NCBI GenBank assembly: GCA_964415605.1
Contig: CAYQBA010000011.1
Location: 1-45,754 of the forward strand
Direction of reading: 5' to 3'
Source of the DNA: an uncultured Anaerolineales bacterium
GTDB taxonomy: Bacteria; Chloroflexota; Anaerolineae; Epilineales; Epilineaceae
Length of the DNA: 45,754 bases
A program made the translations under genes and the position numbers. Under the pieces are notes generated by a model. That model saw only the letters and a program-made list of their open reading frames with translations, searched no databases and had not been told where the DNA came from. Below, one piece after another: positions 7,187-45,754 of the stretch. Each line of letters begins with the position of its first letter. Positions within the stretch are counted from its first letter, which is position 1.

Positions 7187-7248
7187 GCGTGCGCCTCACC
7201 CGGTGCCGCCCCGACGTCACCGCGATGACGCCGATGGCGTGAGAACTG

Positions 7249-7289
7249 CCCCGGCAGCGGTGCGCCCGAAGGGTGCGCCGCTGCCGGGG
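7249..7289 (+). terminator. Strong intrinsic-terminator-like hairpin between the two tandem paralogues
   Basis: ccccggcagcggtgcgccc (7249-7267), loop gaa, gggtgcgccgctgccgggg (7271-7289). This is a 19-bp stem with two G.U wobbles, followed by the T-containing tail cctgTTaTTggcTTcg. Confidence 0.6.
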
Positions 7290-7326
7290 CCTGTTATTGG
7301 CTTCGCAAGAGATTGAAGGTGACCCC

Positions 7327-11806: not shown

Positions 11807-11925
11807 CCTACCAGCACGGCCACGGCGTATCCGCGGCGGGCGGCCCGACGTCTTGATACCGGACGGGCGCCCGCCGCGCTTTGTTCCAGACCATTTCGGA
11901 TCCCTTTTCCTCAGGAGCTGTTTGC

Positions 11926-12597: not shown

Positions 12598-12598
12598 C

Positions 12599-13384: not shown

Positions 13385-13435
13385 TCGCCGGGCGGGATCC
13401 ACCGGCGACGATGCGCAGAAAGGTCTGGTCTTGAG

Positions 13436-31217: not shown

Positions 31218-34200
31218 GGAGCGCGCCGGCCGAAGGGGCGGAGCGGCAGGCGGCGGTCAAGCGCAAACCGTGACGGCGGCGCCGCGGGCCGTAGCCGCAG
31301 CACAAGCTCCGGATGCCGCACGGGGGCCTCCTTGCTGTGGAAGTAGATGCTGTTCTCGCTGTCGGTGCTCAGGCCGAAGCTGACGGGGCCGTTGCCGGCG
31401 ACAGCGGGCGACACGTCGAGCTCGACGTAGGCTTCGGTCCGCACCGGCGCCGCCGTGGCCAGCGGCGGCCCCGTCAGCGGCGGGGCGCTGTTCCACGTCA
31501 GCTCGAGCTCCGTCCACGGTGCGCTGCCGTCGGCGAACGTGTCGGCCACCCGCCGGACCGCCACGCCCGTTCCGCCGTCGTAGGCGTACAGCCGCAGCGT
31601 GGCGGTCAAGACGTCGCGCGGATCGGCGAGCCCGTCGACCTCGAACTTGAGGTAGCTGGTGTAGACCGTCGTCGTGATGCCGGCGCGCAGGCGCAGCTGC
31701 GGCGCATCGCCGAAGGCGCGGTCCGGTGCCGTGCTCTGGACGCGCGCGTCGTGCACCGGCTCGAACAGCCTCACGCTGCCGGGCTCGAACGTCGGCGACG
31801 GCGTGAAGGTGGGCGTGATGCTCGGCGTGTGCGTCGGGCCGACGGTCCGCGTGGCGCTCGGCGTCGGCCGCGGGCCGGTTCGCGAGGCCCATGGCAGGTA
31901 CGCGCGCCCGGCCGGCGGCGTCGCGGTCGCGGTCCGGGTCGGCGATGGCGTGCGGGTCGCGGTGGCCGGCGTGCCCGACCCCGGCGTGTCGGTCGGGGTG
32001 ACCGGGGCGGGCGTGTCGGTCGGCGTGACCGGCGTGGCCGTGGGTGTGGGCGGCACGGGCGTCGGCGGCGTCACGGGGTTCGAAGGATCGGGGCGCACGC
32101 GCACGATCAGCTCGGGACGTCGATCCGGCGCCTCCTTGCTGTGGAAGTAGAGGCTGTTCTCGCCGCTGGTGCTCAGCCCGAAGCTGACCGGGCCGTTGCC
32201 GGTCACCGCGGCCGCGACGTCGAGGTCGACGTACGCCTCGTCCATCACCGGGGCGGCCACCGCGAGCGGCTCGCCCGCCATGGCCGGCGCGTTGCTCCAG
32301 GTCAGCGCCGCCTCGGTCCACGGGGCGCTGCCGTCGGCGAACGTGTCCGCCACCCGGCGGACCGCGAGGTCCGGACCGCCGTCGTAGGCGTAGACCCGCA
32401 GCGTCGCGGTGAGGATCGCCGCCGGATCCGGGATCCCGCTGACCTCGAACTTGAGGTAGCTCGTGTGGATCGTCGTCGTCACGCCGGTCCGGACGCGGAG
32501 CTGGGCCGAGTCGCCGAAGCCCTTGTTCGGCGAGCTGCTCTGGACCCGGGTGTCGTGGATGGGCGCGAACACCAGGGCGCTGCCGGGCGCGAACGTCGGC
32601 GACGGCGTGAACGTCGGCAATGCCGTCCGTGTCGCGCTGGGAGTCGGTGTCGCCGACGGCGGGGGCGTGTCGGACGGTGTCGGGGGCGGCGCGTCGGTCG
32701 GCGTCGCCACATCCGTCGGCAAGGGCGTCGGCGTGGCGCTGGGGCGGACGACGTTGGCCGGGGTCGGCGCCGCCGCGATCCGCATGTCGATGATCAGGAG
32801 CGGCGGCGCGGTGTCGGCCTCGCGGCTGTTGTAGTCGACGCGGTCCGCCGACGCGTTGGCCAGCCCGAAGCTGTAGGTGCCGTCGCCGGGCACGGCCGTC
32901 GACACGTCGAATACCGCCCACTGGTTGTCGGCGACGGCGCCGCCGCGTGCCAGCGGCGTGCCGGTCAGCGGCGGGGCGTTGTGCCACGTCACGTTGTCCT
33001 CGGTCCACGGGGTGGGGGTGGTGTTGGGCGTGGTCGTTGGGTACTGATCCGCCACGGCGTACAGGTCGCCCGCGTCGTCGCTGCCGTTGTTGGCGAACAG
33101 GTGCAGGCGCGCCGTGCGGCGGTGGCCGACAACGGCGGCGGCATCCTCGACCTCGAAGCGCCAGTAGCCGCGCATCACCTGGTCGGGCGCCTTCCGAACC
33201 TGGATCTCGCTCCCGCCGCCGAAGCTCTTGTCGGGCTCGGTGTCGCGCACCATGGCGTCGTCGCTGGCGCGCGCGACGAAGGCCGAGCCCGGCACGGGCC
33301 ACAGCGTGTGCACGCGCTTGAGGTCGATGTCCAGGTATCGGAGCACGACCGGCGCGCCCGGCAGCGCCGTCTGCTTGTTGCCGCACGCGCCGAGGTTGGG
33401 ATCGTACACGCCGAGGGCGTAGAACTGGCCGGTGGCGCGGCGGATGCGCGGCAGCCGGACGTCCGGCTTGCAGACCACGCCCTCGAGCGTGCTGCTGGCG
33501 ATCGGGAAGGTGGGTGGGTCGGCTGTCAGGCGGCAGGCGCCGTTGCCCTCGCCGATCCACGCCTCGTCGCCGCCGAGCGCGTTGACCACCGTGGCGCGGC
33601 ATGTCAGCTCGCCGCTGGTGTACCGCCCCTGCTCGAGGTCGTAGGCCCGCCGGAGCCGGACGTCGTCGCTGGTCGGATCGGCCGGCAGGTCGAAGATCTG
33701 CACCCGCTTGCCCTTCCGGTCGCCGACGGCCAGCGCCCGCCCGTCGGGGCTGATCCCGATGTCGGTGAAGCTGTTGAACTGACCGCGCTCCTCGCCCTTC
33801 TCGCCGAATCGGAAGAGGTCGGCGCCATCCGGCGCGAACACCCGGATGGTGTAGTCGGTGCGGTCGGCGACGAACACGCGGCCGTCGGGAGCGACGGCGA
33901 TGCCGCTGCCCTTGATCTTTGGCCACTCGGCGATGTACCCGCCGTCGAGGTCGTAGACCACGACACGCTTCGAGCCGGCGTCGAGCACGTAGAGCCGGTC
34001 GCGGCCGCTCACCGGATCGCGGCCGACGGCGACCTGCGCCGGCGTCTCGAGGCGCGCCTCGTCCGGCCCGGCCAGCCCGATCGGCGCGCCGAACTCGCCC
34101 CACGGCCACATCACCTGCACGACGCCGGGCCCGGGGTCGCTGAGGTACACCCGTCCGTCGGGCGCCACGTCCAGGCTGACGGGCCGCTGCAGCACCCCCT

Positions 34201-34351
34201 GCAGCATGGGGGCGGCATCGGGGGTGGCCATCGAGCGGTGGGGCGAGCTGAGGCCGACGGTGGTGGCCAGCAGCGCGATCGCCGCGACCGCCCCGGCGCG
34301 GCGGCGCACGGCGGGAGCGATCGAAGAGGCGACGTTGACGGGGCGCGTCAT
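31214..34351 (-). CDS. Secreted protein: NHL-repeat beta-propeller head + 3 DNRLRE-type modules separated by PT linkers
   Basis: The start is set at ATG 34351, giving signal peptide 'RRRAGAVAAIALLATTVGLSSP'. The upstream part of the ORF back to 34465 overlaps the divergent promoter. NHL-like blades: 'RLYVLDAGSKRVVVYDLDG', 'GIAVAPDGRVFVADRTDYTIRVFAPDG', 'GQFNSFTDIGISPDGRALAVGDRKGKRVQIFDL'. Three modules have 'HD.RVQSS.P...FGD..QLR.R.G.......SYLKFEV.G......LTATLR.YAYDGG...AVRRVAD.FADGSAPWTE..LTW..AP'. Confidence 0.85.
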   Translation of the reverse strand: MTRPVNVASSIAPAVRRRAGAVAAIALLATTVGLSSPHRSMATPDAAPMLQGVLQRPVSLDVAPDGRVYLSDPGPGVVQVMWPWGEFGAPIGLAGPDEARLETPAQVAVGRDPVSGRDRLYVLDAGSKRVVVYDLDGGYIAEWPKIKGSGIAVAPDGRVFVADRTDYTIRVFAPDGADLFRFGEKGEERGQFNSFTDIGISPDGRALAVGDRKGKRVQIFDLPADPTSDDVRLRRAYDLEQGRYTSGELTCRATVVNALGGDEAWIGEGNGACRLTADPPTFPIASSTLEGVVCKPDVRLPRIRRATGQFYALGVYDPNLGACGNKQTALPGAPVVLRYLDIDLKRVHTLWPVPGSAFVARASDDAMVRDTEPDKSFGGGSEIQVRKAPDQVMRGYWRFEVEDAAAVVGHRRTARLHLFANNGSDDAGDLYAVADQYPTTTPNTTPTPWTEDNVTWHNAPPLTGTPLARGGAVADNQWAVFDVSTAVPGDGTYSFGLANASADRVDYNSREADTAPPLLIIDMRIAAAPTPANVVRPSATPTPLPTDVATPTDAPPPTPSDTPPPSATPTPSATRTALPTFTPSPTFAPGSALVFAPIHDTRVQSSSPNKGFGDSAQLRVRTGVTTTIHTSYLKFEVSGIPDPAAILTATLRVYAYDGGPDLAVRRVADTFADGSAPWTEAALTWSNAPAMAGEPLAVAAPVMDEAYVDLDVAAAVTGNGPVSFGLSTSGENSLYFHSKEAPDRRPELIVRVRPDPSNPVTPPTPVPPTPTATPVTPTDTPAPVTPTDTPGSGTPATATRTPSPTRTATATPPAGRAYLPWASRTGPRPTPSATRTVGPTHTPSITPTFTPSPTFEPGSVRLFEPVHDARVQSTAPDRAFGDAPQLRLRAGITTTVYTSYLKFEVDGLADPRDVLTATLRLYAYDGGTGVAVRRVADTFADGSAPWTELELTWNSAPPLTGPPLATAAPVRTEAYVELDVSPAVAGNGPVSFGLSTDSENSIYFHSKEAPVRHPELVLRLRPAAPPSRFALDRRLPLRPFGRRAP

Positions 34352-34359
34352 GGACGGCA

Positions 34360-34368
34360 ATTCTATCA
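34360..34368 (-). promoter_or_regulatory. Candidate extended -10 element (TGaTAGAAT) giving a leaderless or near-leaderless transcript for the 31214..34351 gene
   Basis: On the minus strand the sequence reads ...ccgTGATAGAATtgccgtccATG. The -10 ends 8 nt before the ATG, and no Shine-Dalgarno is present. No convincing -35 was found. Confidence 0.3.
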
Positions 34369-34446
34369 CGGATCGGGGAGACCGCGTGACGGGGCATCGA
34401 GGCGCCTGCCGCCGGAGCGTGCGGAATGCGTTGCTGGCGTGCGGGG

Positions 34447-34475
34447 TTGACAAACGCGCGTGCAAATGTTAAGAT
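34447..34475 (+). promoter_or_regulatory. Near-consensus sigma70-type promoter: TTGACA - 17 nt - TAAGAT with a TGn extension
   Basis: TTGACA is at 34447-34452 and TG at 34467-34468, with one spacer nt before TAAGAT at 34470-34475. The spacer is exactly 17 nt. The element sits in the only AT-leaning patch of the divergent intergenic region. The predicted leader to ATG 34636 is about 150 nt. Confidence 0.55.
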
Positions 34476-34635
34476 GGTGTTCCCCACACGCCGGATGGTT
34501 CAGCATCGATATTGACTTTGCCGCATTCCCGGCGAGCCGTCCTGCCCCGGCTCCCAGGGGGGATTCCGCCAGACCACCGCGTCGGCGGCCGACCCCGTCC
34601 AGCAGCCCGTTTTCAAGACCTTGGGAGCGATTGTC

Positions 34636-37569
34636 ATGCGTGGTATCAGGTGGTTGGCGTTGGTCGTCGCCGTGGTCGCCAGCGGGTCGGTCGTGTCCGA
34701 TGCCGGCGCCGTCATTCAGGCTCAGCACACGTTCGACGCTTCGCACGATACCCACGTCTCGAGCGCCAATCCAGGCTCGAACTACGGCACCCTCGTCAAC
34801 GCCCGTGTGCTCGGCGATCCGGCCAACACCTATCGCACGTACATGAAGTTCACGGTGAGCGGGATCCAGGGCGAGATCGGGAGCGCCCGCCTGCGGCTGT
34901 ACGCGCTCGACGACAGCGTGTACGGCGGGGCGGCGTACATCACCTCCAACAACCTCGACGGCACCGGCACGCCGTGGACTGAGCGCACGCTGACGTGGAA
35001 CAACGCCCCGCCCTCCACGGGCACGGTGCTCGACACGCGCGGCAGCGTCACCAGGAAGACCTGGGTGGAGTGGGACGTGACCGAGGCGATCACGGGCAAC
35101 GGCACGTTCAGCCTGGTCGTGGTCAGCACGTCCACCGACGAGGTCCAGTACGCCACCAAGGAGAGTGGAGGAAGCACCGCCCCGGAGCTCGTCGTCGAGA
35201 CGCTGCCCACCCCGACCCCGACGCTGACCCCGTCCCCGACGCGCACGCCGACCCCCACGCCCACCGCGACGCCCACCGCCACCCGTACGCCGACACCGAC
35301 CGCGACCCCATCGCCGACCGCCACCCGCACGCCGGCCCCGACCGCCACCAATACACCGGTGCCGACGGCGACCCAGACTGCGACCGCCACCCGGACGTCA
35401 ACGGCGACGGCCACAGCCGTGCCGCCGACAGCGACGCGGACCTCGACGGCCACAGCCGTGCCGCCGACGCCGACGCGGACGTCCACCGCCACGATCCCGC
35501 CGCCTACGCCGACGCGGACGTCGACCGCCACGGTCCCGCCGTCCACGGCGACGCGGACGTCGACCGCCACGGTCCCGCCGCCCACGGCGACGCGGACGTC
35601 GACCGCCACGGTCCCGCCGTCCACGGCGACGCGGACGTCGACCGCCACGGTCCCACCGCCCACGGCGACCCGCACGGCGACTGCCACCGTCCCGCCGCCC
35701 ACGGCGACCCGCACATCGACCGCCACGATCCCACCGCCCACGGCGACGCGGACGTCGACCGCGACCGTCCCACCGCCCACGGCGACCCGCACGTCAACCG
35801 CGACCGCCGGTTCGCCCACGACCACGGCCACGCCGCAATCCACGTCGTTCGGCGCCGGCCATGACGCCCACGTCAAGAGCACATCGCCCAACACGAACTA
35901 TGGGTCGGTGACGTACCTGCGCGTGAGGAGCGGGTCGCCCGGGTACAACACCTACCTCAAATTCACGGTCTCGGGCCTGACCGGCACCGTCGTCCGCGCC
36001 CGGATCCGCCTCTTCGCCTACGACGGCGGACCCAGCGCGGGCGCCATGCACGCCGTCTCCAACGACGACGGCGGCGGATCGCCGTGGACCGAGTCCACGC
36101 TGACGTGGAACAACGCCCCACAGATCGGCGGCAGCCCGCTGAGCACGGTGGGCGCCGTCGGCAACAACGAGTGGGCCGAATGGGACGTGACCAGCGCCAT
36201 CACCGGCAACGGCACGTTCAGCTTCGGCCTCAAGAACACGTCGACCAACAGCGTCAACTACCAGTCCGAGGAAGCATCCGGCGACCGCCCGGTCCTCATC
36301 GTCGATACCGTCGGGGGCAACACGCCGCCGCCGCCATCGCCCTCGCCGACGGCGTCGCGCACCGCCACGGCCGTGCCGACGTTGACGCTCACCGCATCGC
36401 CCACTCGGACGGCGACGAGCACCGCCACGCGCACGCCCACACGGACGCCGACGCTGACCGGTACGCCGCCCACCAGCACCCCCACGGCCACCGGGTCGAC
36501 GCCCACGCCCAGCCGGACGCCGACCGTCGCGGCGTCGCCGACCGCCACCCGGACGGGCACCGCGACGCCCGTGCCGCTTTGGATCTCGCGCGCCGAGATC
36601 GAGGCCCTGCCGACGTCGGGCACCCCGTGGGCCAACGTCATCAACACGGCCAACAGCTACGAGGGCAGCCCGACGGTGTGCAACCAGGACTCGCCCAACA
36701 ACGTGATGGTCCTGGCCAAGGCCCTGGCGTACGTGCGCACCGGCAACCAGACCTTCCGGACGCGTGTGCGCGTCAACGTGATGAACGTCATCGGCACCGA
36801 GAACGGCTCGACATGCCGCAGCCTCGCGCTCGGGCGCAAGCTCGCGGCCTACGTGATCTCCGCCGACCTCGTCGGGCTCACGTCGTCCGAGGAGACGACG
36901 TTCCGCAACTGGCTGACGAACCTGCGGACCAAGCGCTTGAACGGCGACAACCGAAGCCTGGTGGAGTGCCACGAGGAGCGCCCCAACAACTGGGGCACGA
37001 TGTGCGGCGGCAGCCGCGCGGCCGCGTCGGCGTATCTCGGCGACCGGACCGACCTCGACCGCACGGCGGAGGTCTTCAAGGGCTACCTCGGCGATCGGTC
37101 GTCGTACGCCGGCTTCAGCTACGGCAGCGACCAGTCGTGGCACGCCGACCCCAACGCGCTGCGCGGCATCAACCCGCAAGGCTCGGTCAAGCAAGGCGTC
37201 AACATCGACGGCGTGCTGCCCGACGACATGCGGCGCGGCGGGTCGTTCCGGACGGGCTGCCCCGTCTACACCGGCTACCCGTGGGAGGCGCTGCAGGGTG
37301 TGATGGTCCAGGCCGAGATCCTGCACCGCCAGGGCTACAACGCGTGGGGTTGGGAGAACCAGGCCGAGCGGCGCGCCGTACAGTACCTGAAGAACCTCTA
37401 CGACCAATGCGGAGGCCAGTGGTACGGCGACACCGACGACGAGTTCACGCCGTGGATGATCAACCACGTGTACGGCACGAGCTTCCCGACGGCCAGCCCG
37501 GTCCACATGGGCAAGATCATGGGCTGGACCGACTGGACGCACGACCGGGCCACGCGGCAGCGGCAGTAG
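34636..37569 (+). CDS. Secreted protein: 2 DNRLRE-type modules + long tandem-repeat PT linker + C-terminal alpha/alpha-toroid polysaccharide-lyase-like domain
   Basis: ATG 34636 lies 8 nt after GGGAG; the ORF-track start at 34621 is a TTG. Signal peptide '[22 protein letters not shown]'. Modules lie at approximately 34720-35200 and 35840-36300. The C-terminal domain of about 330 aa ('[15 protein letters not shown]','[25 protein letters not shown]','[22 protein letters not shown]') looks alginate-lyase-family-like and has two paralogues downstream. Confidence 0.8.
35389..35823 (+). repeat. In-frame tandem array of about 11 copies of a 39-bp unit ([10 protein letters not shown][PS]TA)
   Basis: Unit boundaries are 35389, 35434, 35473, 35512, 35551, 35590, 35629, 35668, 35707, 35746 and 35785. 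Units 4 and 6 are identical. Units 5 and 7 differ at one base, giving a 78-bp higher-order repeat. Confidence 0.9.
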
Positions 37570-37717
37570 CTGGCAGCCCGGCCGGGGCGTCCCGCATCGC
37601 CGGCGACGCCGGGCGGCGGCTTCGAAGGCCGCCACCGCTCCCAGTCGCCGTGCGTGACCCGTCCGGGCCCCGCGACCACCGGACAAGATCACCGCGAGCC
37701 GGACGATTCGCCCAAGA

Positions 37718-37749
37718 TCCCTGTAGATCTGGCGCCAGATCTACAGGGA
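37718..37749. repeat. Perfect 32-nt palindrome in the convergent intergenic region (bidirectional terminator hairpin or protein-binding site)
   Basis: tccctgtagatctgg cg ccagatctacaggga. The arms of 14-15 bp are fully complementary. It contains AGATCT twice and a central GGCGCC. It is much less GC-rich than its surroundings and has no U-tract. Confidence 0.6.
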
Positions 37750-37791
37750 AGTGCGGTGGCATTCCCCAGGCAACTTGGCACCGGATCCCCA

Positions 37792-37820
37792 GGGGTCTCG
37801 GGTCGCCGACCCGAGACTCC
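37792..37820 (-). terminator. Hairpin downstream of the prohibitin gene
   Basis: gtctcgggt (37795-37803), loop cgccg, acccgagac (37809-37817). The stem can be extended by ggg/tcc(c), including one G.U pair. It lies 34 nt past the TAG at 37854-37856. No U-tract follows. Confidence 0.35.
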
Positions 37821-37853
37821 CGGTTCCCACCTCGTCCGTCGCCGCGGGCCCGG

Positions 37854-38795
37854 CTACTGGCCCGGCTGGACCAGCCCCCTGAGGTCCATCAAGAACTGCT
37901 GTCCGCCGGGGACCATCATCACCTGCACCTTGTCGCTCAGCTTCTGGATGTAGGTGTAGGTCAGCACCGGCTCGGTCAGCGACTGCGCCAGGCGCTCGTT
38001 GGCCTGGGCCTGGCCCTCCGCGCGTTCGATCGTCGCCTGCGCCTCGCCCTTGGCCTCGGCCACCCGCTGCTCGGCCTGGATCCGGCGTTGCTCGAGGATC
38101 TGCTTCTCGGTCTGCACTTGCTGCTCGGCCACCTGCTTGAGCTCGATGGCGCTCTCGTACTCCGGGCTGAAGCGGATGTTGGAGAGGTAGATGTCGTCGA
38201 CGACGATGTGGTAGCGCGACAGGTTCTCGCCCAGCGCCTCGCGCGCCAGCCGGCGGATCTCGTCGCGTTCCGAGAGGATCGCCGTCACCGGGTATTGCGG
38301 CACGACCTCCTTGATGAAGTCGTTGAACGCCGGGTCGATGACCTTCTCGGCGAAGTCGAGCCCGACGGTGCGGTACAGGTCGTAGGCCATCGTGGGGTCG
38401 ATGTGGTAGTTCATCGTGCCGGTCAGGCGCACCGCCTGGTACTCCTTGGACGCGGCGTCGATCTCCTGGAAGGGGTGCGGCTGGACGCGGATGTCGACGA
38501 TGACGACCTGCTCGGCGATGGGGGTGACGATCTGCAGCCCCGCCGGCAGCGTCCGCTCCTCCACCCGGCCGAACCACGTGACGACGCCGACGTGGCCGGC
38601 GGGGACGATGACGACGAACGTGCGGATCAGGCCGAAGACCGTCACGATCAGGCCAACGGCGAACAGTGTCCGCCAGCGGGCATAGAGCACCGTCGACCCG
38701 CCGCGGCCTTGGGCGCTCGCGGCGCGCCCAGTGGCTGCCGCGGCCAGCGCGAGGATGATCAACATGGCGCCGATCATGAACAGGGAAGAGCTCAT
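37854..38795 (-). CDS. SPFH/band-7 (prohibitin-family) membrane protein
   Basis: ATG 38795 is preceded by AAGGAGG. N-terminal TM 'LFMIGAMLIILALAAAA'. 'VIVPAGHVGVVTWFGRV', 'YHIVVDDIYLSNIRFSPEYESAIE' and a coiled-coil tail 'QVQTEKQILEQRRIQAEQRVAEAKGEAQA' are present. The ORF-track entry 37854..40337 is a composite; only its last 313 codons are this gene. Confidence 0.85.
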   Translation of the reverse strand: MSSSLFMIGAMLIILALAAAATGRAASAQGRGGSTVLYARWRTLFAVGLIVTVFGLIRTFVVIVPAGHVGVVTWFGRVEERTLPAGLQIVTPIAEQVVIVDIRVQPHPFQEIDAASKEYQAVRLTGTMNYHIDPTMAYDLYRTVGLDFAEKVIDPAFNDFIKEVVPQYPVTAILSERDEIRRLAREALGENLSRYHIVVDDIYLSNIRFSPEYESAIELKQVAEQQVQTEKQILEQRRIQAEQRVAEAKGEAQATIERAEGQAQANERLAQSLTEPVLTYTYIQKLSDKVQVMMVPGGQQFLMDLRGLVQPGQ

Positions 38796-38978
38796 CGGAA
38801 GCGGGCCTCCTTGGCACCGGGATGGGCGGCGGCACGTGCGCCCAGGTCGATCGCGCACCGATCGACACCATGGCTTACGATGCGTGCCCCCGCCCGGTCG
38901 CGGAATCCCCGCGGCCGCCTCACGGCGTGACCCATAGGGATGGCGCCGCCTCGTCTCCCCCCCAGGCCCCCGACATGC

Positions 38979-39012
38979 CGCGGGGGGCATGCAACGTCGC
39001 ATGCCCCCCGCG
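38979..39012 (-). terminator. Perfect 14-bp GC hairpin downstream of the phytase-fusion gene
   Basis: cgcggggggcatgc (38979-38992), loop aacgtc, gcatgccccccgcg (38999-39012). It lies 44 nt past the stop at 39056. No clear U-tract follows. Confidence 0.5.
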
Positions 39013-39055
39013 ATCATCCTGGGCGCGCGAGCGCCCCGACGGCTTGCCGACCCGG

Positions 39056-41620
39056 CTAGTTCTGCACGAAGAACCAGATCTTGGCCACGCCGGCCGGGTT
39101 GTTGTGCTCGCCGCTGCAGAACTCGCAGCTCGACGTGCCGCCGTCGCCGGTGGACGTCACCGCCAGCGAGTGCCAGCCGTTGGCGAGCTGGCGTGTGTCC
39201 ACGGTGATCGGCGTGAAGCTCTGGAAGTTGCCCGCCCGGTCGAACAGAATCCGCCCGGCGGACGGGGCGACCTCCGGCCACGAGCCGACGGCCGGGATGA
39301 AGTGCGACTTGTCGAGCGCCACCTGCAGGTGGTTGCTGGTCTGCTGGGCGCGCACGTTGAACGTGTGGACGCCCGACACCGGCGCCAGCGGGACGCACTC
39401 GATCACCGCGTTGGTGTAGCCGAACCCGTCGTACCAGCCGCGGCCGATCAACGAGCGGTTGTTGCACCAGCGGTTGTAGTTGTTGCCGCCCCCGCCGCCG
39501 CCGTTGACGATGCGCAGCGGGATGCCGCTGGAGTTGAGGAACCGCTTGCCGTCCGGGCTGTCCGACGTCGCCCGGATGCGGATCTCGCGCCAACCGTTGG
39601 TCATCTTGGTCGTGTCGAGCGACACCGGCACGTTGAACGCGCAGTTGGTGCTCGTCCGGCCGTCGTACGGGCAGCGCAGGTTCAGCGGGATCCGCTTGAA
39701 GACGCCTTGGTCGGTGTCGATCCGCAGCTCGAACAAGTGGCTGGGGTTGTCGTGCAGCACGATCCGGACGTCGAAGTCGAGCGTGCCGGACACGTCCTGG
39801 CCCAGCGGCAGCATCGCGGCGGCGTGGATGTGGCCGAAGTTCGGCGCCCACCACGCCTGGAGCTCGATCGGGATGCGGCGGGCGTTGAACGTGCTGTCGG
39901 GCACCTGCCGCCCCGGCGGATCCTGCGGCAGCAGCCCGCCCGGCCCCGGCGTCGACGTCGACGGCGCGATCGGCCGGGCCGTGGGCTCCACGGCCGTGGC
40001 GGTCCGCGTCGCGGTAGGCGCCGCCGGTTGCGTCGGGGTCCGCGTCGCGGTGGGTGCCGGCGGCTGGGTCGGGTCGGGCGGGCCGGTCAACGGCCCGCAG
40101 CTCAGCGCGATCTCGCCGGTGGATTGCGTCACGATCGTCAGCTTGCCGTTCGGGCACGTGACGCTGACGGACTCGCCCGGGGCGAGCTGCATGTCGTGGC
40201 CCCCGCCCGACGGGGTCGCGGTCGCCGGCGGCGGGTTGTTGCCGCCGGGTGGCGGCGGATCGGACGTGGCGCCGCGTGGATCCTCCGTGGTGTTGACCAT
40301 GAGCGGCGGGCTGGCCGAGGCGGCGATGTCCGGCCACCGCACCAGCTTGTAGTTGTTCGCGCCGCGGTCGTTGGACCCGTCGTGCGCCACGAACAGCCCT
40401 TGCGGGAACGTCCCGTTCAGCGCGACGTTGGTCACGTCGATGCCGTCGGTGCTGCCCACGGCGTCGATGCCGTTGCCGGCGCCGATGGTGAACGACGTGA
40501 CGAAGGCGTGCGGCGGCTGGCGATCGTAGACCGCGAACGTGCTGTCGCCCTGACTCGACGCCAGGACGTAGCCGCTGCCGCCGGGCCCGTAGTAGATCGC
40601 CACGCCCTCGACGTCAGCCTTCAGGTGGCCGCCGCCGCTGGTCCCGTCGATCTTGGTGCGCGCCGTCCCGTCGCCGGGCTCGGCACCGTACTTCCACAGG
40701 CCCACGCCTTCCTCGCCGATGTACAGCGCACCGGTCTCGTCGTCCGCGGCGCAGCCCTCGGTCTGTGTGCCGACGTCGAACGCACGCACCCGGACCCCGC
40801 TGACCACGCCGTCGAGGTCGCCGAGCTCCCACTGCTCGACCTGGCCGTCCTTGTCGTTGACGAACGCGTAGGTCTTGCTGCTCACCGGCGAGCGGTAGAG
40901 GCAGAAGCCATACGTCTCGCTCACGCCGACGGCGATGCCGGGCCCGCTGATGTTCGACATCTGGCGCGTGACCGGGTTCACACCGTACACCCGGATGCGG
41001 TTGCCGTTCTCGTCACCGGTGGCGACGATGTCGACGGTCGCGCCTTTCAGCGGGAACCCGTAGCGCACGTCGACGTTGTTGGGCTCGCCCCCGTTGACGA
41101 ACTGGACTTGTGTGCCCGCCAGGTCCCAGCTGAAGAGCCCGGCGCTCTTGTCGGTGCCGATGATCATGCTCTGGGCCGGGTCGGTCGGGTGCACCCAGAT
41201 CGCCGGGTCATCGGCGTCCTGGCTCACCGACCCCGTCTCGACGATGGGCGCCACGGTGCTGACGTCCAGACCGTCCGGCGCGCCGCCGGCATCGCCCAGG
41301 GTGACGTCGTCGTCGTCGTCGGCCCGCTCGTCCGCCGGCGCGCCCGGCGCCCGGGCGCCCGCCGCGGCCACGGGCTGGGCGCCGAGGTCGCGGATGATCT
41401 TCCAGGTCGACGGCGCGAACGCCAGGAGGTCGCCGTCCGTCACGCTGCACCAGGCGTCCTGCACGGCGTTGGCGGGCGCCTGGAACGCGCCTGCCGCCGG
41501 CCGGTTGGCGAAGCGCGCCAGATCGGGGGGGAGCGACCGCGCGTCACCGAGGATGGGCACGATCCAGGCGGCCAGCACGGCGCCGGCCACGAGGAGCGCT
41601 GCGGTTCTCAGTCTGGTCAT
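39056..41620 (-). CDS. Secreted beta-propeller phytase (BPP, 3-phytase family) fused through a 2-Cys mini-module and PT linker to an uncharacterised C-terminal domain of about 290 aa
   Basis: AAGGAGAG RBS. Signal peptide 'LRTAALLVAGAVLAAWIVPILG'. The BPP core (approximately 40322-41250) is collinear with Bacillus PhyC-type phytase: 'DADDPAIWVHP', 'IIGTDKSAGL', 'NNVDVRYGFPL', 'ETYGFCLY', 'VRAFDVGTQTEGCAADDETGALYIGEE', 'DVEGVAIYY', 'GYVLASSQGDSTFAVYDR', 'STDGIDV', 'GLFVAHDG'. I do not recognise the C-terminal domain (39059-39930; 'WWAPNFGHIHAAAM', 'LRCPYDGRTSTNCAF', 'GGGGGGNNYNRWCNN', 'SSCEFCSGEHNNPAG'). Confidence 0.85.
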   Translation of the reverse strand: MTRLRTAALLVAGAVLAAWIVPILGDARSLPPDLARFANRPAAGAFQAPANAVQDAWCSVTDGDLLAFAPSTWKIIRDLGAQPVAAAGARAPGAPADERADDDDDVTLGDAGGAPDGLDVSTVAPIVETGSVSQDADDPAIWVHPTDPAQSMIIGTDKSAGLFSWDLAGTQVQFVNGGEPNNVDVRYGFPLKGATVDIVATGDENGNRIRVYGVNPVTRQMSNISGPGIAVGVSETYGFCLYRSPVSSKTYAFVNDKDGQVEQWELGDLDGVVSGVRVRAFDVGTQTEGCAADDETGALYIGEEGVGLWKYGAEPGDGTARTKIDGTSGGGHLKADVEGVAIYYGPGGSGYVLASSQGDSTFAVYDRQPPHAFVTSFTIGAGNGIDAVGSTDGIDVTNVALNGTFPQGLFVAHDGSNDRGANNYKLVRWPDIAASASPPLMVNTTEDPRGATSDPPPPGGNNPPPATATPSGGGHDMQLAPGESVSVTCPNGKLTIVTQSTGEIALSCGPLTGPPDPTQPPAPTATRTPTQPAAPTATRTATAVEPTARPIAPSTSTPGPGGLLPQDPPGRQVPDSTFNARRIPIELQAWWAPNFGHIHAAAMLPLGQDVSGTLDFDVRIVLHDNPSHLFELRIDTDQGVFKRIPLNLRCPYDGRTSTNCAFNVPVSLDTTKMTNGWREIRIRATSDSPDGKRFLNSSGIPLRIVNGGGGGGNNYNRWCNNRSLIGRGWYDGFGYTNAVIECVPLAPVSGVHTFNVRAQQTSNHLQVALDKSHFIPAVGSWPEVAPSAGRILFDRAGNFQSFTPITVDTRQLANGWHSLAVTSTGDGGTSSCEFCSGEHNNPAGVAKIWFFVQN

Positions 41621-41703
41621 GTCAGGGGCTCTCCTTTGTCAGGGGTTGGATGTCGGCCGGCTGGGCGGAGCCGGCGGTCCGGGACCGAGCGGTGGGGTTG
41701 CGG

Positions 41704-43191
41704 TCAAGGGCGGGTACGGGTGGCGCGATCGTGGGTCCAGTCCGTCCAACCCATGATCTTGCCGGACTGCGCGGGGGTGGTTGCCGTGAACCGCGTGCCG
41801 TACACGTGGTTCACGATCCACGGGACGAACTTGTCGTCCCCGCTCGTGGCTTCCGACGCCCAGCCCCCGCAGCGGGCGTCGAGACCATAGAGGTACGCCA
41901 GGGCGCGGCGCACGGCCTGTTGCTCCCAGCCCCAGGCGTCGTAGCCCTGGCGGTGCAGGATCTCGGCCTGGACGACCACGCCCTGCAGCGCCTCCCACGG
42001 GTAGCCCGTGTGGCTGGGGCACCCGGTGGTGAAGCCGGCGCCGCGGCGCATGTCGTCGGGGATGGCGCCGTCGATGTCGACGCCTTGCTTGGTGGCGCCG
42101 GCGGCGTTGATGCCGCGCGGCTGGGACGGGTCGCCCTGCCAGGACGTGTCGCCGTACGCGAAGCCCGCGTAGCTGGCGCGATCGCCGACGTAGCCCTTGA
42201 ACACACGGGCGGTCCGGTCCAGATCGGCCCGATCGCCGAGATAGGCCGAGGCCGCCGCGCGGCTGGCGCCGCACATCGTGCCCCAATTGTTGGGGCGATC
42301 CTCGTGGCAGCTCACCAGCGAGCGGCTGTCGCCGAGCTTCTTCGTCCGCACGCCGGCCAGCCAGCCACGGAACGCGGCGTCCTCGGCGGCGGTCAGGCCG
42401 ACGAGGTCCGCCGCGATGACGTACGCGGCGAGCTCGCGCCCGAGCGCGAGGCTGCGGCAGCTGCCGCCGGACTCGGTGCCCATGGCGCTCAGCACGGCGC
42501 GCCGGACATCGGTCCGATAGGTTTCCTCACCCGTCCGGGCGAAGACCAGGGCCTTGGCCAGCACCAGCACGTTGCTGTTGCTGTTCTGGTCGCACAGCGT
42601 CGGCGTGCCCGTGCCGCCGTCGGCGGCGGCGCGGAGTGCGCTCCAGGCCGGGCCGGACATCGGCAGGCGGCGGACCTCGTCGGATGAGATCCACAGGCCG
42701 GCCGACGGGCCGGTCGGCGGCGCGGCCGCCGAGGTCGGTGCGAGTGTCGGCGTCGGCGCGGCCGCCAGCGTGGGAAGCGCGGTGTGCGTCGGGGCGGGCG
42801 TTTGCGACGCCACGGCGGTGGGCGGCCCGAGCGTGGGCGTCAGCGTCGGCGCCACGGCCAGATCGCACACGATGTCTACGCGGCCCGACTCCAGGCGGGT
42901 GATCCGCAGGTTGCCCGCGGGACAGCGCAGACGGGTGGTTTCACCCAGCTCGAGCGGCATGGTGCGCGAGCCAGGATCGCCGCCCGCCGGCGTCGCCGAG
43001 GGCGACGGGCTCGTCGCTTCGGCGAAGCCGCCGGCCGGCGGCGATCCCACGGAGACGTGCGCCACGGCGGCAGCGCCCCTGCCGCCGTGGGCGAGGTCGA
43101 TCGGGCCCTGGCCGCCCGCAACCGCGGGCGAGAGCCATGCCACGACCACCGCCAGCCTGAGCGGGCTGGCGGAAAGGCGGGACGGAACCAT
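41704..43191 (-). CDS. Secreted protein: 2-Cys mini-module + PT linker + alpha/alpha-toroid lyase-like domain (paralogue of the C-terminus of 34636..37569)
   Basis: AAGGAG lies 7 nt before ATG 43191. Signal peptide 'LRLAVVVAWLSPAVAGG'. The C-terminal 330 aa are collinear with the upstream protein ('LWISSDEVRRLPMSGPAW' vs '[18 protein letters not shown]'; '[25 protein letters not shown]'; '[16 protein letters not shown]' is identical in both). Confidence 0.8.
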   Translation of the reverse strand: MVPSRLSASPLRLAVVVAWLSPAVAGGQGPIDLAHGGRGAAAVAHVSVGSPPAGGFAEATSPSPSATPAGGDPGSRTMPLELGETTRLRCPAGNLRITRLESGRVDIVCDLAVAPTLTPTLGPPTAVASQTPAPTHTALPTLAAAPTPTLAPTSAAAPPTGPSAGLWISSDEVRRLPMSGPAWSALRAAADGGTGTPTLCDQNSNSNVLVLAKALVFARTGEETYRTDVRRAVLSAMGTESGGSCRSLALGRELAAYVIAADLVGLTAAEDAAFRGWLAGVRTKKLGDSRSLVSCHEDRPNNWGTMCGASRAAASAYLGDRADLDRTARVFKGYVGDRASYAGFAYGDTSWQGDPSQPRGINAAGATKQGVDIDGAIPDDMRRGAGFTTGCPSHTGYPWEALQGVVVQAEILHRQGYDAWGWEQQAVRRALAYLYGLDARCGGWASEATSGDDKFVPWIVNHVYGTRFTATTPAQSGKIMGWTDWTHDRATRTRP

Positions 43192-43539
43192 CTCAGCACT
43201 CCTTGATCCAGAACGGAATCAAGAGCAGCGGCGACGCCGGCCGACCGGGTCGGAACCCGAGGGTCGGCACGGCGGCGCGGCGGGACCGCTGCCCGGAGCG
43301 CTGACCGTAGCGTATGGGTGGGGGGTGACGTCAGGGACGGGATTGCAGGAATGATGACGGCCCGCGCGGCGGCCCGATACGGGGTGGGAAGCCCGCGCGG
43401 GTCACACGTGGGGCTCGCGACGGGGGTGCGACGGACGGGCGTCGGACGGGGCCGGCAACGGGTGTTGACCGGTGCGGCGGGCCACGCGCGCCCGCGGCTG
43501 GAAGCGGAGCAGCGTTGAGCCCCGATGCGCCGAGGGCGC

Positions 43540-45300
43540 CTACGGCGCGGGCGGCGCCACGGCCGGCGGATCGGCGACGACCTCGCCCGGCGCAAAGCCA
43601 TGGGTGAGCGTCCCGAAAGCGATGTCCTGGTCGGGTCCGGCGGCGGGGACCTGGAGCTGCGGCGCCCAGACCTCGGTGTGGCCAAACTGGCCATGCCGGT
43701 GGTAGTAGCGGTAGGCGACGTACAGCGCCGACTCGTGCCGCCACTCGGTACCGGCGTCGACGATGACGGCGTCGATGGCGCGCTCGACCGAGCCGCGGCC
43801 CGGCCAGAGGCGCACGGTGCGCGGCCGGCCGTCCGGCCCCTGGAATGGGTGCTCCGGCACGTCGGTCGGGTCGATGTTGTCGTAGCACGCGCGGTCGCCG
43901 CGCCGCAGCATCAGCTCGCACTGCTGCACGAGGTTGCCGAGGTGCACCTGCGGGTAGTTCTGGTACTCGCCGTTGTAGCGCGGGACGTTGCAGAACTCCT
44001 CGCGCCGGGCATCCTCGGGGATGATGCCGGCCGGCGTGATCTGAGACTTGACCGCCGGGAAGGCCAGGCTCTGCTGCTCGCCGGACAGGTAGTCGCAGCT
44101 GTCGTTGCTGGCCAGCTCCACGCGGTAGCCGTTCATCCGGTCGAGCGCCAACTTGTTCGCGTAGGCGTAGGCCTGGCCGGGGGTGAAGCGGAGGTCCCGC
44201 CCGCCGTCGATCTGCGCCGGCTGGCGATGCACCAGCGTCACCTCGGGGCGGTCCCACAGGTAGTCGGCGATGTAGGCCGTGGCGTTGGTGGCGGCGGCCC
44301 CCCAGTTGGACTGCCGCGCGGCGGCGGTCTCCGAGACGGCGTAGTACGGGTTCTTGACCAGCCAGTTCTGGAAGAGCACCTTGCACGGGCCCGTGCCGAG
44401 GCTGTCCTCGCCGTACACCGTGCCCGTCGGACCGTCACACGTGCGGCCGGCCCAGTAGTCCTCGATGAGGTCGGCGGCGGCCACGAGCTCCGGCGTCCCC
44501 CAGCCGAAGTTGAGCTGGCATTGCTGGCCGTCGGCCTCGTAGTTGATGGTGCGCACGCGCGACATGATGGTCTGGAGGATCACCACGACGGCCTCGGCGT
44601 AGGCCGGGTCGCCCGTGAGGTGGTACGCCAGGGCCTTGGCGTAGACGACCGTGTGGCCGGACTCCTCGTCCATGAACTTGGGGCTGTCGGCGCCCGAGCA
44701 CTTTACCCGGTCCTTGAGCCCGCTGGTGCTCCACTTCTTGTCGGCCCATTCCAGCGTCAGCGCCACGGCCGCGGCATAGGGCTCGATGCCCGCCGCGGCC
44801 TTGCGGCGCACGGCATCGAGCTCGCCGGGCGTGGTCAGATAGCCGCGCGAGCGCGACGGTGGCGCCGGGGAGCCGGCAGGCTCCGGCGTCGACGATGGGG
44901 TGGGCGGGGCCGTGGGGGTCGCCTCCAGCGTCGGGATAGGCGGCGCCGTCGCGCTCGCGGGCACCGTCGCCTCCGCCGTGGGCGTCGAGGTTCCCGTCGC
45001 CCGTGATGTCGGGCGGGCCGTGTGGGCGCCGACCACCGTCGCGGCGTCGAGCACCAGCGGGACGAAGACCGGCGCGCCACCGCCGGACGCCACATGGGCC
45101 GCGCGTTCCGGACCGCCGGCCACCGCGCCCGTTGCGCTCCGCGGGACGTCGCCCGTGGGCACGCCGCACGCGAGGGCTGCGGCGCAGGTGCCCGCGGCCA
45201 GGCCCCAGACCGCCAGGCGCCACCGGACCGCCAGCCCGTGGTCCGGGGCGGCCGCGCCGCGGCCGGGCAATCGGATCGCTTGATCGGGGGGTGGGCGCAT
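43540..45300 (-). CDS. Secreted (possibly lipoprotein) alpha/alpha-toroid polysaccharide-lyase-like protein, more distant family member
   Basis: The signal region 'WRLAVWGLAAGTCAAALACG' is followed by a PT linker. 'VVYAKALAYHLTGDPAYAE', 'RQSNWGAAATNATAYIADYLWD' and 'AYAYANKLALDRMNGY' show a helical-repeat organisation like alginate-lyase-family (PF05426-type) proteins. Confidence 0.7.
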   Translation of the reverse strand: MRPPPDQAIRLPGRGAAAPDHGLAVRWRLAVWGLAAGTCAAALACGVPTGDVPRSATGAVAGGPERAAHVASGGGAPVFVPLVLDAATVVGAHTARPTSRATGTSTPTAEATVPASATAPPIPTLEATPTAPPTPSSTPEPAGSPAPPSRSRGYLTTPGELDAVRRKAAAGIEPYAAAVALTLEWADKKWSTSGLKDRVKCSGADSPKFMDEESGHTVVYAKALAYHLTGDPAYAEAVVVILQTIMSRVRTINYEADGQQCQLNFGWGTPELVAAADLIEDYWAGRTCDGPTGTVYGEDSLGTGPCKVLFQNWLVKNPYYAVSETAAARQSNWGAAATNATAYIADYLWDRPEVTLVHRQPAQIDGGRDLRFTPGQAYAYANKLALDRMNGYRVELASNDSCDYLSGEQQSLAFPAVKSQITPAGIIPEDARREEFCNVPRYNGEYQNYPQVHLGNLVQQCELMLRRGDRACYDNIDPTDVPEHPFQGPDGRPRTVRLWPGRGSVERAIDAVIVDAGTEWRHESALYVAYRYYHRHGQFGHTEVWAPQLQVPAAGPDQDIAFGTLTHGFAPGEVVADPPAVAPPAP

Positions 45301-45363
45301 CGTCTCTTAAGACGCCGTGCGAGATATTAAGGATACTGTGGCGTGCCCGGCACGGTCGGTACC

Positions 45364-45392
45364 TTGCGGCGGCCCGGCGGACGCGTTATGAT
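45364..45392 (+). promoter_or_regulatory. Candidate promoter TTGCGG - 17 nt - TATGAT for the downstream lipoprotein gene
   Basis: The -35-like TTGCGG is at 45364-45369, the -10 TATGAT at 45387-45392, and the spacer is 17 nt. It lies in the divergent intergenic region, about 98 nt upstream of ATG 45490. Confidence 0.3.
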
Positions 45393-45489
45393 CTCGACGG
45401 CGATGCCAGGCGTCGACCGATCGCCGGTGCCCGCCGCCCGCGGGGCCCTGCCCGGTGCGGGCGATGCATGCTCAACGAGGAGACAGCCC

Positions 45490-45754
45490 ATGCGAGTGCC
45501 AAACCTGGCGTGGATCGGACTGTTGGCGGGGTTGACCGCCGGCTGCGCCGCGCTGAACCAGGGCGACCTGTCGCCCACGCCCGACGCGGGCGATGCCCGG
45601 CCGGCGGCCATGGGCGAGCCTGGCGACGGGGCGGGCACGGCCGCCGAGCCGGCGTCGGCGGCGACGACGGTGGACGCATCGGCGCCGGGCGGCGACGCGG
45701 AGGCCGCGCTCGATCAGCCGGGCGCGGCCGATACGGCCGCCGAGGCGTCCACGG
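45490..45754 (+). CDS. N-terminal part of a putative lipoprotein (runs off the window)
   Basis: This ORF is not in the supplied track because it has no stop within the window. GGAG lies 8 nt upstream. 'MRVPNLAWIGLLAGLTAGCAALNQ' has a lipobox-like LTAGC, followed by an Ala/Asp/Pro-rich low-complexity spacer. Confidence 0.55.
   Translation, partial: MRVPNLAWIGLLAGLTAGCAALNQGDLSPTPDAGDARPAAMGEPGDGAGTAAEPASAATTVDASAPGGDAEAALDQPGAADTAAEAST

Follow-up and report, generated by a model that had tools for sequence, protein, structure and literature searches.

A beta-propeller phytase fused to an unnamed two-lobed beta-sandwich domain beside alginate-lyase-family genes in an activated-sludge Chloroflexi

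Introduction

The beta-propeller phytases (BPPs) of Bacillus, represented by PhyC / TS-Phy (1POO, 2POO, 1H6L, 3AMR), are single-domain proteins of ~355 aa. BPPs carry the signature motifs D-A-[ATE]-D-D-P-A-[ILV]-W and N-N-[VI]-D-[ILV]-R-[YDQ], and the Bacillus enzymes are free of Cys (PMC4017775). Tandem BPPs of ~700 aa, common in metagenome-assembled genomes (MAGs) of Chloroflexota/Anaerolineae, pair an active propeller with a degenerate N-terminal one. A different modular design is met in the multimodular CBM96 alginate lyases, of which Dp0100 is the founding case and in which CBM96 is an alginate-specific carbohydrate-binding module (CBM) (PMC9971899). Here we describe a gene on the minus strand (39056..41620) of a 45,754-nucleotide stretch of DNA (contig CAYQBA010000011.1, positions 1 to 45,754; the whole stretch is referred to as the window) from an uncultured Anaerolineales bacterium, whose predicted product joins a BPP to a large C-terminal domain, termed C-dom.

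The host is a common, widespread activated-sludge Chloroflexi. In sludge flocs, alginate-like exopolymers cross-linked by Ca2+ are abundant, as is bound phosphorus, and BPPs act on Ca2+-phosphoester complexes. We tentatively favour, with doubt still slightly ahead of belief, the reading that the protein is a secreted Ca2+-dependent phosphatase directed by C-dom to the acidic, alginate-like exopolymer matrix of activated sludge, where it would work alongside enzymes of the alginate-lyase family PF05426. The link between C-dom and polysaccharide enzymes is drawn from the PF05426 gene upstream, three lyase fusions, ten proteins that combine CBM96 with C-dom, a PF14099 lyase adjoining a phage copy of C-dom, and sulfatases around a copy from Caldilineaceae. 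An extracellular location is suggested by the predicted signal peptide, the Pro/Thr-rich (PT) linkers and the co-varying Cys pairs, and a binding role by the attachment of C-dom to two unrelated enzymes (BPP and lyase) at either end.

Domain architecture

The open reading frame (ORF) encodes 854 aa from an ATG start, and its GC content at third codon positions (GC3) of 0.96, in a window of ~72% GC, marks 39056..41620 (-) as the coding frame. Residues 1-27 (41540..41620 (-); MTRLRTAALLVAGAVLAAWIVPILGDA) show a basic n-region followed by a hydrophobic core when read by eye, and are predicted to form a Sec-type signal peptide or an N-terminal anchor. The orthologues P0086 and P0087 have the same N-terminus, and a cleavage site would be expected directly after this segment. 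Residues 28-125 (41246..41539 (-)) make up a clade-specific segment with a single Cys (C58), a DDDDD acidic run and the conserved pattern WCSV...PSTWKI..DLGA.PVAAA; the segment is 39-98% identical in P0086-P0090 and gave no match in a Pfam search.

The six-bladed BPP domain, assigned through PF02333 and PDB matches, spans residues 126-452 (40265..41245 (-)). It is followed by a Pro/Gly-rich linker (residues 453-476; 40193..40264 (-)), a 34-aa mini-domain with two Cys, C489 and C508 (residues 477-510; 40091..40192 (-); MQLAPGESVSVTCPNGKLTIVTQSTGEIALSC), a PT linker (residues 511-577; 39890..40090 (-)), and finally C-dom (residues 578-854; 39059..39889 (-)), a 277-aa two-lobed beta-sandwich as judged from its homologues and an AlphaFold2 model. 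Both linkers were delimited by composition, and the orthologues carry similar PT linkers of variable length. An earlier sequence-only reading of the window had placed a PT linker after the propeller and, behind it, about 290 aa that it could not assign; the last 294 aa are indeed without a Pfam match (E <= 1), but the region resolves into linker, mini-domain, PT linker and the 277-aa domain.

The mini-domain is a recurrent module of ~32-34 aa with the consensus roughly L.xGE....C..G.L.I......G.I...C, always followed by a PT linker, and has no Pfam match. Copies are located in the window at 40091-40192 (-) and 42865-42960 (-), and in P0001, P0008, P0009, P0014, P0018, P0033, P0037 and P0085. 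The second copy in the window lies near the N-terminus of the product of the upstream neighbour, at residues 78-109 (MPLELGETTRLRCPAGNLRITRLESGRVDIVC). Among 229 proteins of the C-dom family the mini-domain occurs in 27, mostly right behind the signal peptide and ahead of the PT linker.

Phytase domain

Residues 128-449 match PF02333 (Phytase) with an E-value of 5.3e-94 and 315.7 bits against a cut-off of 21, and in a phmmer search residues 129-452 gave alignments to the solved Bacillus phytases (1POO/2POO, 3AMR and 1H6L) with 45% identity and E ~1e-79. The collinearity with Bacillus-type BPP that had been read by eye for residues ~125-435 is thereby borne out. Both signature motifs are present, as DADDPAIW at 135-142 and NNVDVRY at 181-187. 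The NCBIfam model NF045638 (myxosortase-dependent phytase-like phosphatase) scores 272 bits, below its cut-off of 440.

The residues said to form the catalytic site of TS-Phy were checked against the 1POO chain, in which, with an offset of +28, each residue type of the list is found at its expected number; conservation was then scored in an alignment of 232 BPP domains from the 120 best homologues. D55, D56, K76, Y159, E211, E227, D258, E260, Q279, D308, D314 and N339 (TS-Phy numbering) are identical in the query and in 7/7 clade members. Loss of the acidic Ca2+ ligands, which the sequence-only reading had named as grounds for doubting the propeller, is therefore not seen: they are kept, as are 12/12 of the residues checked. 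Each of the 12 residues is likewise retained in 109-114 of the 114 C-terminal active-type domains of tandem BPPs, and the same positions are variable or replaced in the degenerate N-terminal domains. The BPP core is thus predicted to be a catalytically competent Ca2+-dependent phosphatase, for which specificity towards phytate is not guaranteed.

The doubt over phytate comes from position 122. Arg122, which we take to be a phosphate-binding residue of the cleavage site, is Glu (E204) in the query and Glu or Gln in 6/7 clade members, P0090 being the only one to keep NR, whereas Arg is found in 112/114 active-type domains. The loop is equally long in both groups (NR to DE, NE or NQ), so that the alignment is unambiguous at this point. 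A clade-invariant Arg, R208, lies five residues after the Arg122 position and might or might not compensate for the loss. The substitution lowers our confidence in phytate specificity, not in BPP family membership, and nothing else in the enzyme itself speaks for a substrate other than phytate. The query also departs from the Bacillus enzymes at K77, K179 and E338, positions that vary among BPPs generally.

C-terminal domain

A word-based search returned 85 homologues of C-dom at 28-76% identity, and an exhaustive profile search extended the family to 1043 representative clusters at E <= 1e-3 (371 at E <= 1e-30), none of which is named. C-dom has no match in Pfam at E <= 1, in PHROGs or in PADLOC, nor in a profile search of PDB sequences at E <= 10; NCBIfam gave just a sub-threshold hit to GTA_spike_fiber (E 0.019; 15.5 bits against a cut-off of 36).

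The AlphaFold2 model, built from a 64-sequence alignment, has a mean predicted local distance difference test score (pLDDT) of 95.9 and a predicted template-modelling (pTM) score of 0.93. It is all-beta, with two lobes of ~eight strands each, the N-lobe covering residues ~578-710 (nt 39491-39889 (-)) and the C-lobe residues ~711-854 (nt 39059-39490 (-)). Foldseek matches of the whole domain against the PDB are generic tandem immunoglobulin (Ig)/FN3-like proteins (PorU, RbmA, C5a-peptidase Fn3 domains, transglutaminase barrels) with TM-scores of ~0.3 or below under either normalisation, and the viral structure library BFVD likewise yielded generic matches. The N-lobe modelled alone (pLDDT 94.2) resembles E-set/Ig-like sandwiches, namely TRAP, MD-1/2, RhoGDI, arrestin/VPS26, AA10 and PmoD; its query-normalised TM-score is at most 0.6, against arrestin/VPS26, and no match reaches E <= 1e-3. 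Judged from these models, the fold class is common, yet C-dom itself falls into no known family. The possibility that the region is a common CBM, Ig-like or FN3 domain was thus followed up, and it has no sequence match to such families and resembles just generic Ig-like sandwiches in fold. The novelty that the sequence-only reading ascribed to the domain stands in so far as no named family includes it; the domain is, however, not confined to the fusion, for the family exceeds 1000 clusters, with many stand-alone and some phage-borne members.

Conservation was counted in 203 full-length domain sequences. Four His are near-invariant (H597 in 197/203, H599 in 200/203, H623 in 198/203, H817 in 200/203), as are W590 (202/203) and W591 (199/203). 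Other conserved positions include Q588 (194/203), E586 (177/203, with Asp in 19 more), R619 (187/203), R681 and D808 (189/203 each), and Y730 and Y735 (198/203 each). Going by the strand assignments, E586, Q588 and W590 on strand 1, H597 and H599 on strand 2, and R619 and H623 on strand 3 would be expected to share one sheet face.

The six or more Cys noted from the sequence amount to exactly six in C-dom (650, 660, 719, 742, 832 and 835). The pair 650/660 is complete in 170 sequences and absent from 15, with the first Cys alone in 0 and the second alone in 18; the corresponding numbers (both, first only, second only, neither) are 72, 20, 0 and 111 for 719/742, and 111, 7, 8 and 77 for 832/835. 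The three pairs co-occur as disulfide pairs would, in keeping with the extracellular disulfides proposed earlier. The motifs that had been quoted from this region are all present: WWAPNFGHIHAAAM at 590-603, LRCPYDGRTSTNCAF at 648-662, GGGGGGNNYNRWCNN at 707-721, IECVPL at 740-745 and SSCEFCSGEHNNPAG at 830-844. The run of six Gly that had been singled out is found in the protein but is not a family feature, two of the Gly falling in insert columns absent from ~190/203 relatives.

Several family assignments were tried for C-dom and rejected. A divergent CBM96 is ruled out by an hhalign probability of 3%. Lytic polysaccharide monooxygenases (LPMOs), Cu/Zn superoxide dismutase, PHM, PNGase F, M23 peptidase, cupin and PL7-like jelly roll, considered in view of the His motifs and two-lobed design of C-dom, gave no meaningful Foldseek match, and C-dom does not fit their order of motifs or the requirement for an N-terminal His. 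As to AA10 LPMOs in particular, C-dom is internal in fusions, and its stand-alone members have ~15-20 non-His residues before the first conserved His. A phage structural or defence protein is disfavoured by the lack of any PHROG, PADLOC or GenBank-phage match and by the varying position in phage genomes.

Partners, phage copies and distribution of C-dom

In 104 of the 229 family proteins nothing but a signal peptide or linker accompanies the domain; C-dom is C-terminal in 67, N-terminal in 52 and internal in 6. Fusion to a PF05426 lyase domain has arisen three times independently, in P0092 (BPP-lyase-C-dom) and in P0215 and P0308 (both C-dom-lyase). Ten members are composed of exactly one CBM96 and one C-dom, in either order. 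The partners in 47 long members are Ig-like spacers (Big_7, PKD) and surface anchors (SLH, CWB2, RTX), and the phytase is the only known catalytic partner among them. We also note that sulfatases flank a Caldilineaceae copy.

Some copies are carried by phages. P0037 (locus L006) is situated in a tail region, between a tape-measure gene and an Amidase_2 gene; P0066 (L008) shares its contig with genes for primase, DnaB and a pectate-lyase-like tailspike; and P0012 (L009), whose contig also encodes an SU10 adaptor, adjoins a PF14099 polysaccharide lyase. Four IMG/VR contigs carry C-dom, with the L012 copy between terminase and portal and the L013 copy between portal and head protease. Inspection of the N-termini showed that the P0012, P0037, P0066, L012 and L013 copies start with a signal-peptide-like hydrophobic segment. 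Given these N-termini and the variable position in phage genomes, C-dom behaves like mobile cargo. A search of 50,697 GenBank phage records returned no match to C-dom. The assembly GCA_026645665.1 (L006, L027) holds both a chromosomal BPP-C-dom fusion, P0333, and the prophage-borne stand-alone P0037, which consists of mini-domain, linker and C-dom. Phage could be the source or the vector of the module.

MAGs of Anaerolineales, Acidobacteriaceae and Methylococcales have copies of C-dom with 61-80% identity, and less similar ones occur in bacteria of the candidate phyla radiation (CPR), Steroidobacteraceae, Arthrobacter and Alphaproteobacteria. This taxonomic spread indicates horizontal transfer.

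Conservation and transcription of the fusion

A full-length search identified six proteins of the same architecture: P0086 (95% identity), P0087 (86%), P0088 (64%), P0089 and P0091 (66%), and P0090 (47%). BPP-C-dom fusions are already in public databases, labelled hypothetical protein; the NCBI members of the clade are from 'Chloroflexi bacterium CFX6' and 'bacterium' (UCB3). A second BPP lineage fused to C-dom is represented by P0208, whose divergent BPP (36% identity) keeps the catalytic residues including Arg122. P0090 (L001 10001-13783), with 1260 aa, has a second propeller between mini-domain and C-dom and is thus a tandem BPP plus C-dom; this second propeller keeps most catalytic-site residues but has Pro in place of Y159 and Ala in place of R122.

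In 20 metagenome runs from activated sludge, wastewater and digesters, belonging to 13 studies (P1-P13), contigs contain 93-100% of the words sampled from 39056-43191. The BPP part, the two linker junctions, C-dom, the neighbouring lyase gene and the gene for the 586-aa protein described below are also represented by metatranscriptome contigs at 95-100% identity. One RNA-derived contig (40148-40529) crosses the Pro/Gly linker, and another (39832-40139) covers most of the PT linker, including its border with C-dom, and extends into the mini-domain. These contigs point to transcription of the gene in situ, DNA carry-over being possible in such libraries.

Neighbouring genes

The gene situated 83 bp upstream of the phytase start (41704..43191 (-)) encodes a 495-aa PF05426 alginate-lyase-family protein, in which a predicted signal peptide, the two-Cys mini-domain and a PT linker precede the PF05426 domain (35.2 bits, with the cut-off at 22.2). 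The family to which it belongs counts at least 1990 members, many of them fused to CBM96; among the 120 homologues listed, nearly all carry a precomputed PF05426 match and several are named alginate lyase family protein. The gene is syntenic upstream of the fusion in L003, L005 and L027. The PF05426 clade (41707-42714 (-) in the window) has the family-invariant motif HEDRPNNWG, where Trp occupies the place of what is presumably the catalytic His of PL5-type lyases (NNH; Asn-His...Tyr). The chemistry of this clade, as far as the motif tells, may differ from that of canonical alginate lyases.

Further upstream, the first gene of the conserved block (43540..45300 (-)) encodes a predicted secreted protein of 586 aa, in which a PT linker is followed by a distant relative of the lyase family. 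hhalign relates this product to the lyase-family profile with a probability of 95.6% and E 1.1e-8 over 244 columns, and R.SNWG stands where the lyase family has RPNNWG; Pfam and PDB sequence searches gave no match. At the same upstream place, L003/L027 and L001 have genes for 544 aa and 565 aa, respectively, that lack a Pfam match and are matched by position only.

On the other side of the phytase gene, a 313-aa SPFH/Band_7 protein (37854..38795 (-); PF01145, E 3e-31) is encoded downstream; it is syntenic in L003, L004 and L027, with no evident functional link. Beyond it lies a plus-strand gene (34621..37569 (+); GC3 0.93) for a predicted secreted protein of 983 aa, composed of signal peptide, two CBM96 modules, very long PT linkers and a PF05426 domain. 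Its CBM96 segments align with the other CBM96 copies of the window, its PF05426 domain is a close paralogue of the 41704-43191 product, and the L027 orthologue has precomputed CBM96 and Alginate_lyase matches. The minus-strand ORFs 34830-35894 and 36258-36653 were discarded as antisense shadows of this gene.

The order in L027 is 544/586-aa gene, lyase, fusion, Band_7, CBM96-lyase, NHL-CBM96 and malic enzyme, and L003, from a close relative, shows the part of the block from the 544-aa gene to Band_7. The other side of the block is bounded in L003 and L027 by a Cu-amine-oxidase-like gene and a family 4 glycosyltransferase (GT4), in L027 also by a polysaccharide flippase. At three loci (L001 5787-7741, L003 3905-5991 and L027 4120-6206), a truncated Cu-amine-oxidase-like gene (PF01179, 368-391 aa) and a 283-304 aa gene without Pfam match adjoin the lyase/phytase block divergently; the window probably ends inside a counterpart of the 304-aa gene (45331-45753 (+), partial). 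A promoter and terminator scan of 37500-45754 was uninformative.

Functional assignment

The BPP-C-dom protein would be part of a conserved secreted set together with the 586-aa lyase relative, the PF05426 lyase and the nearby CBM96-CBM96-lyase paralogue. C-dom would dock the protein on the polymer, and possibly act on the polymer itself, while the lyase-family enzymes would open the matrix. The BPP would then hydrolyse Ca2+-complexed phosphomonoesters in or on the matrix, by which phosphate would be set free. Phytate is the default candidate for the substrate, and the replacement of Arg122 by Glu makes a less highly charged one possible.

Several points weigh against this assignment. Near-invariance of four His, together with conservation of Glu, Gln, Arg and Tyr, is a pattern more often met at catalytic or metal sites than in simple binding modules, and close to half of the family (104/229) stands alone. 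We infer the polysaccharide solely from the CBM96 and PF05426 annotations, and searches of PDB sequences with a single sequence or a profile found no solved relative of the PF05426 clade. The orthologue P0088 (L002) has no lyase neighbour. The roles of the TS-Phy catalytic-site residues are reportedly those given by Ha and co-workers in 2000 and Shin and co-workers in 2001, and the BPP could be an ordinary phytase.

The first of these points leads to the alternative that survives best, although we consider it rather unlikely: C-dom would itself be an enzyme, a new metal-dependent polysaccharide-active catalytic domain, and the protein bifunctional. The conserved set of His, Glu, Gln, Arg, Tyr and Asp residues given above is what such a domain would be expected to show, and the stand-alone members fit it as well. 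The ten proteins with one CBM96 and one C-dom have the classic layout of CBM plus catalytic module; the other partners are spacers and wall anchors (Big_7, PKD, SLH, CWB2, RTX), almost never known catalytic domains of glycoside hydrolase (GH) or polysaccharide lyase (PL) families. The phage copies, which are cargo genes with a signal peptide and a varying place in the genome, point the same way, as do, weakly, AA10 LPMOs and the copper protein PmoD among the best single-lobe structural matches. On the other hand, C-dom is joined through PT linkers to two unrelated enzyme types, at either terminus, as binding modules are; its generic Ig-like sandwich fold has no catalytic relative; and the missing N-terminal His leaves no LPMO-type His brace. 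A bolder and still less likely form of this proposal makes C-dom the founder of a new four-His metal-dependent family that cleaves or modifies acidic exopolysaccharides and is spread by phages as cargo, here as part of a matrix-degrading, phosphate-mining toolkit with the phosphatase and the PF05426 lyases.

A second alternative concerns the phosphatase rather than C-dom. The sequence-only reading had set the phytase in one island with pepM, VTC and CotH and proposed a target other than soil phytate, such as a phosphorylated polymer. The window does contain a phosphoenolpyruvate (PEP) mutase gene (10898-11806), DUF4956, VTC and CotH plus beta-helix genes (the last at 13436-16540), followed by GHMP kinase, glycosyltransferase, Wzz-like and Wzy genes. 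The PEP mutase, DUF4956, VTC domain protein and a 1034-aa CotH plus right-handed beta-helix protein stand in a row at 10898-16540 (+), right after two large CBM96 proteins (4295-10893), and this row suggests a pathway for a phosphonate- or phosphate-decorated exopolysaccharide. Two proteins of the exopolysaccharide (EPS) cluster, at 1063-2250 (+) and 25294-26613 (+), have weak sub-threshold C-terminal matches to thymidylate kinase (E 7e-4 and 3e-5) and may be paralogous P-loop kinases.

That the BPP dephosphorylates a phosphorylated polymer made by this island, and not phytate, nevertheless appears doubtful to us. In its favour, CBM96 proteins are found both in the island and beside the phytase (31214-37569), which makes one shared polymer possible; the L027 cluster is flanked by a polysaccharide flippase and GT4; and the loss of Arg122 fits a substrate less densely phosphorylated than phytate. 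But pepM, VTC and CotH lie 22-28 kb off, beyond a malic-enzyme gene, and none of them occurs within 10 kb of the more distant orthologues, those in L001 and L002; the proposed link to them is not conserved, and the conserved partners are instead PF05426 genes and CBM96. PEP mutase, moreover, makes C-P bonds, which a phosphomonoesterase does not cleave. R208 might make up for Arg122, and P0090 and P0208 keep Arg122 although fused to C-dom. While the Arg122 substitution leaves room for an altered substrate and a polymer context is itself plausible, nothing specific indicates a phosphorylated polymer from the neighbouring island, and the evidence points to an acidic polysaccharide matrix.

Less probable again is that the protein is an ordinary phosphate-scavenging phytase anchored by C-dom to the producer's own cell surface or sheath, with no functional tie to the lyases. 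The position of C-dom at the C-terminus behind a PT linker resembles that of many wall-anchoring domains, some family members are surface-associated through additional SLH, CWB2 or Por-secretion tails, and P0088 lacks the lyase neighbour. Yet a protein that is already anchored does not usually need a second anchor such as SLH or CWB2, and a stand-alone secreted form in 104/229 members would be unexpected. An anchor would also hardly stay 61-80% identical between MAGs of Anaerolineales, Acidobacteriaceae and Methylococcales, which belong to phyla with greatly differing envelopes, and the three lyase-domain and ten CBM96 fusions point to a shared soluble or matrix substrate. An artefactual fusion, in which an assembly chimera or frameshift joins a phytase gene with a mini-domain-linker-C-dom gene, would draw on the existence of stand-alone genes of the latter kind (P0008, P0009, P0037) and on an in-frame Met at residue 477, the start of the mini-domain, but is effectively refuted by the continuous frame with GC3 0.96 throughout, the same architecture at 47-95% identity in independent assemblies, its recovery in the 20 sludge, wastewater and digester runs, and the RNA-derived contigs across both junctions.

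Comparison with known systems

With matrix-directed phosphatase as the favoured assignment, the locus can be set against the systems described at the outset. The propeller belongs to the same family as the Bacillus BPPs, with 45% identity over 332 residues; the query, at 854 aa, differs from these single-domain enzymes in its N-terminal segment, mini-domain, PT linkers and C-dom. Within the propeller, E338 is replaced by Ser, and I340 corresponds to a gap or Asp depending on the alignment; both positions, which we take to be part of a stabilising Ca site, also vary in other BPPs. Unlike the Bacillus BPPs, the query propeller has two Cys (C240 and C290). It is 45-56% identical to the C-terminal active-type domain of the tandem BPPs. 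Whereas these pair an active and a degenerate propeller, the query pairs its propeller with C-dom, and only P0090 combines both. The BPP half is thus an ordinary family member, in which the replacement of Arg122 by Glu marks a natural clade for probing substrate specificity.

The design of the protein is that of the multimodular CBM96 alginate lyases, in which secreted catalytic modules are linked to polysaccharide-recognition modules, and the window itself encodes a CBM96-CBM96-PF05426 protein of this type. C-dom takes the positions of CBM96 relative to the PF05426 domain and also co-occurs with CBM96. The two are nevertheless unrelated, C-dom being twice the size, with two lobes and a His-rich conserved site, and a phosphatase as partner is unusual for CBM96-type alginate-lyase systems. 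Alginate-like exopolymers and phosphorus cycling are both of practical weight in activated sludge, and an enzyme set that broke down the matrix and released phosphate in a coupled way would matter for the stability of flocs and granules and for the recovery of phosphorus.

The C-dom half represents a family of more than 1000 clusters without a name or assigned function. The marks of a functional site, the movement between phyla and phages, and the alginate-type partners make it a testable candidate for a new carbohydrate-binding or carbohydrate-active family. The AA10 LPMOs (formerly CBM33, e.g. CBP21) offer an analogy, and an analogy only, as secreted Ig-like sandwiches with conserved His that occur alone or fused and are also virus-encoded. 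They are the best single-lobe Foldseek matches to C-dom, with poor superposition (rmsd 6-8 A; target-normalised TM 0.26-0.38), and C-dom differs from them in having two lobes instead of one, no sequence similarity, and its conserved His at domain positions 28, 30, 54 and 248. CBM33 was long taken for a binding protein before proving to be an LPMO, and should C-dom turn out to be catalytic, it would repeat that history.

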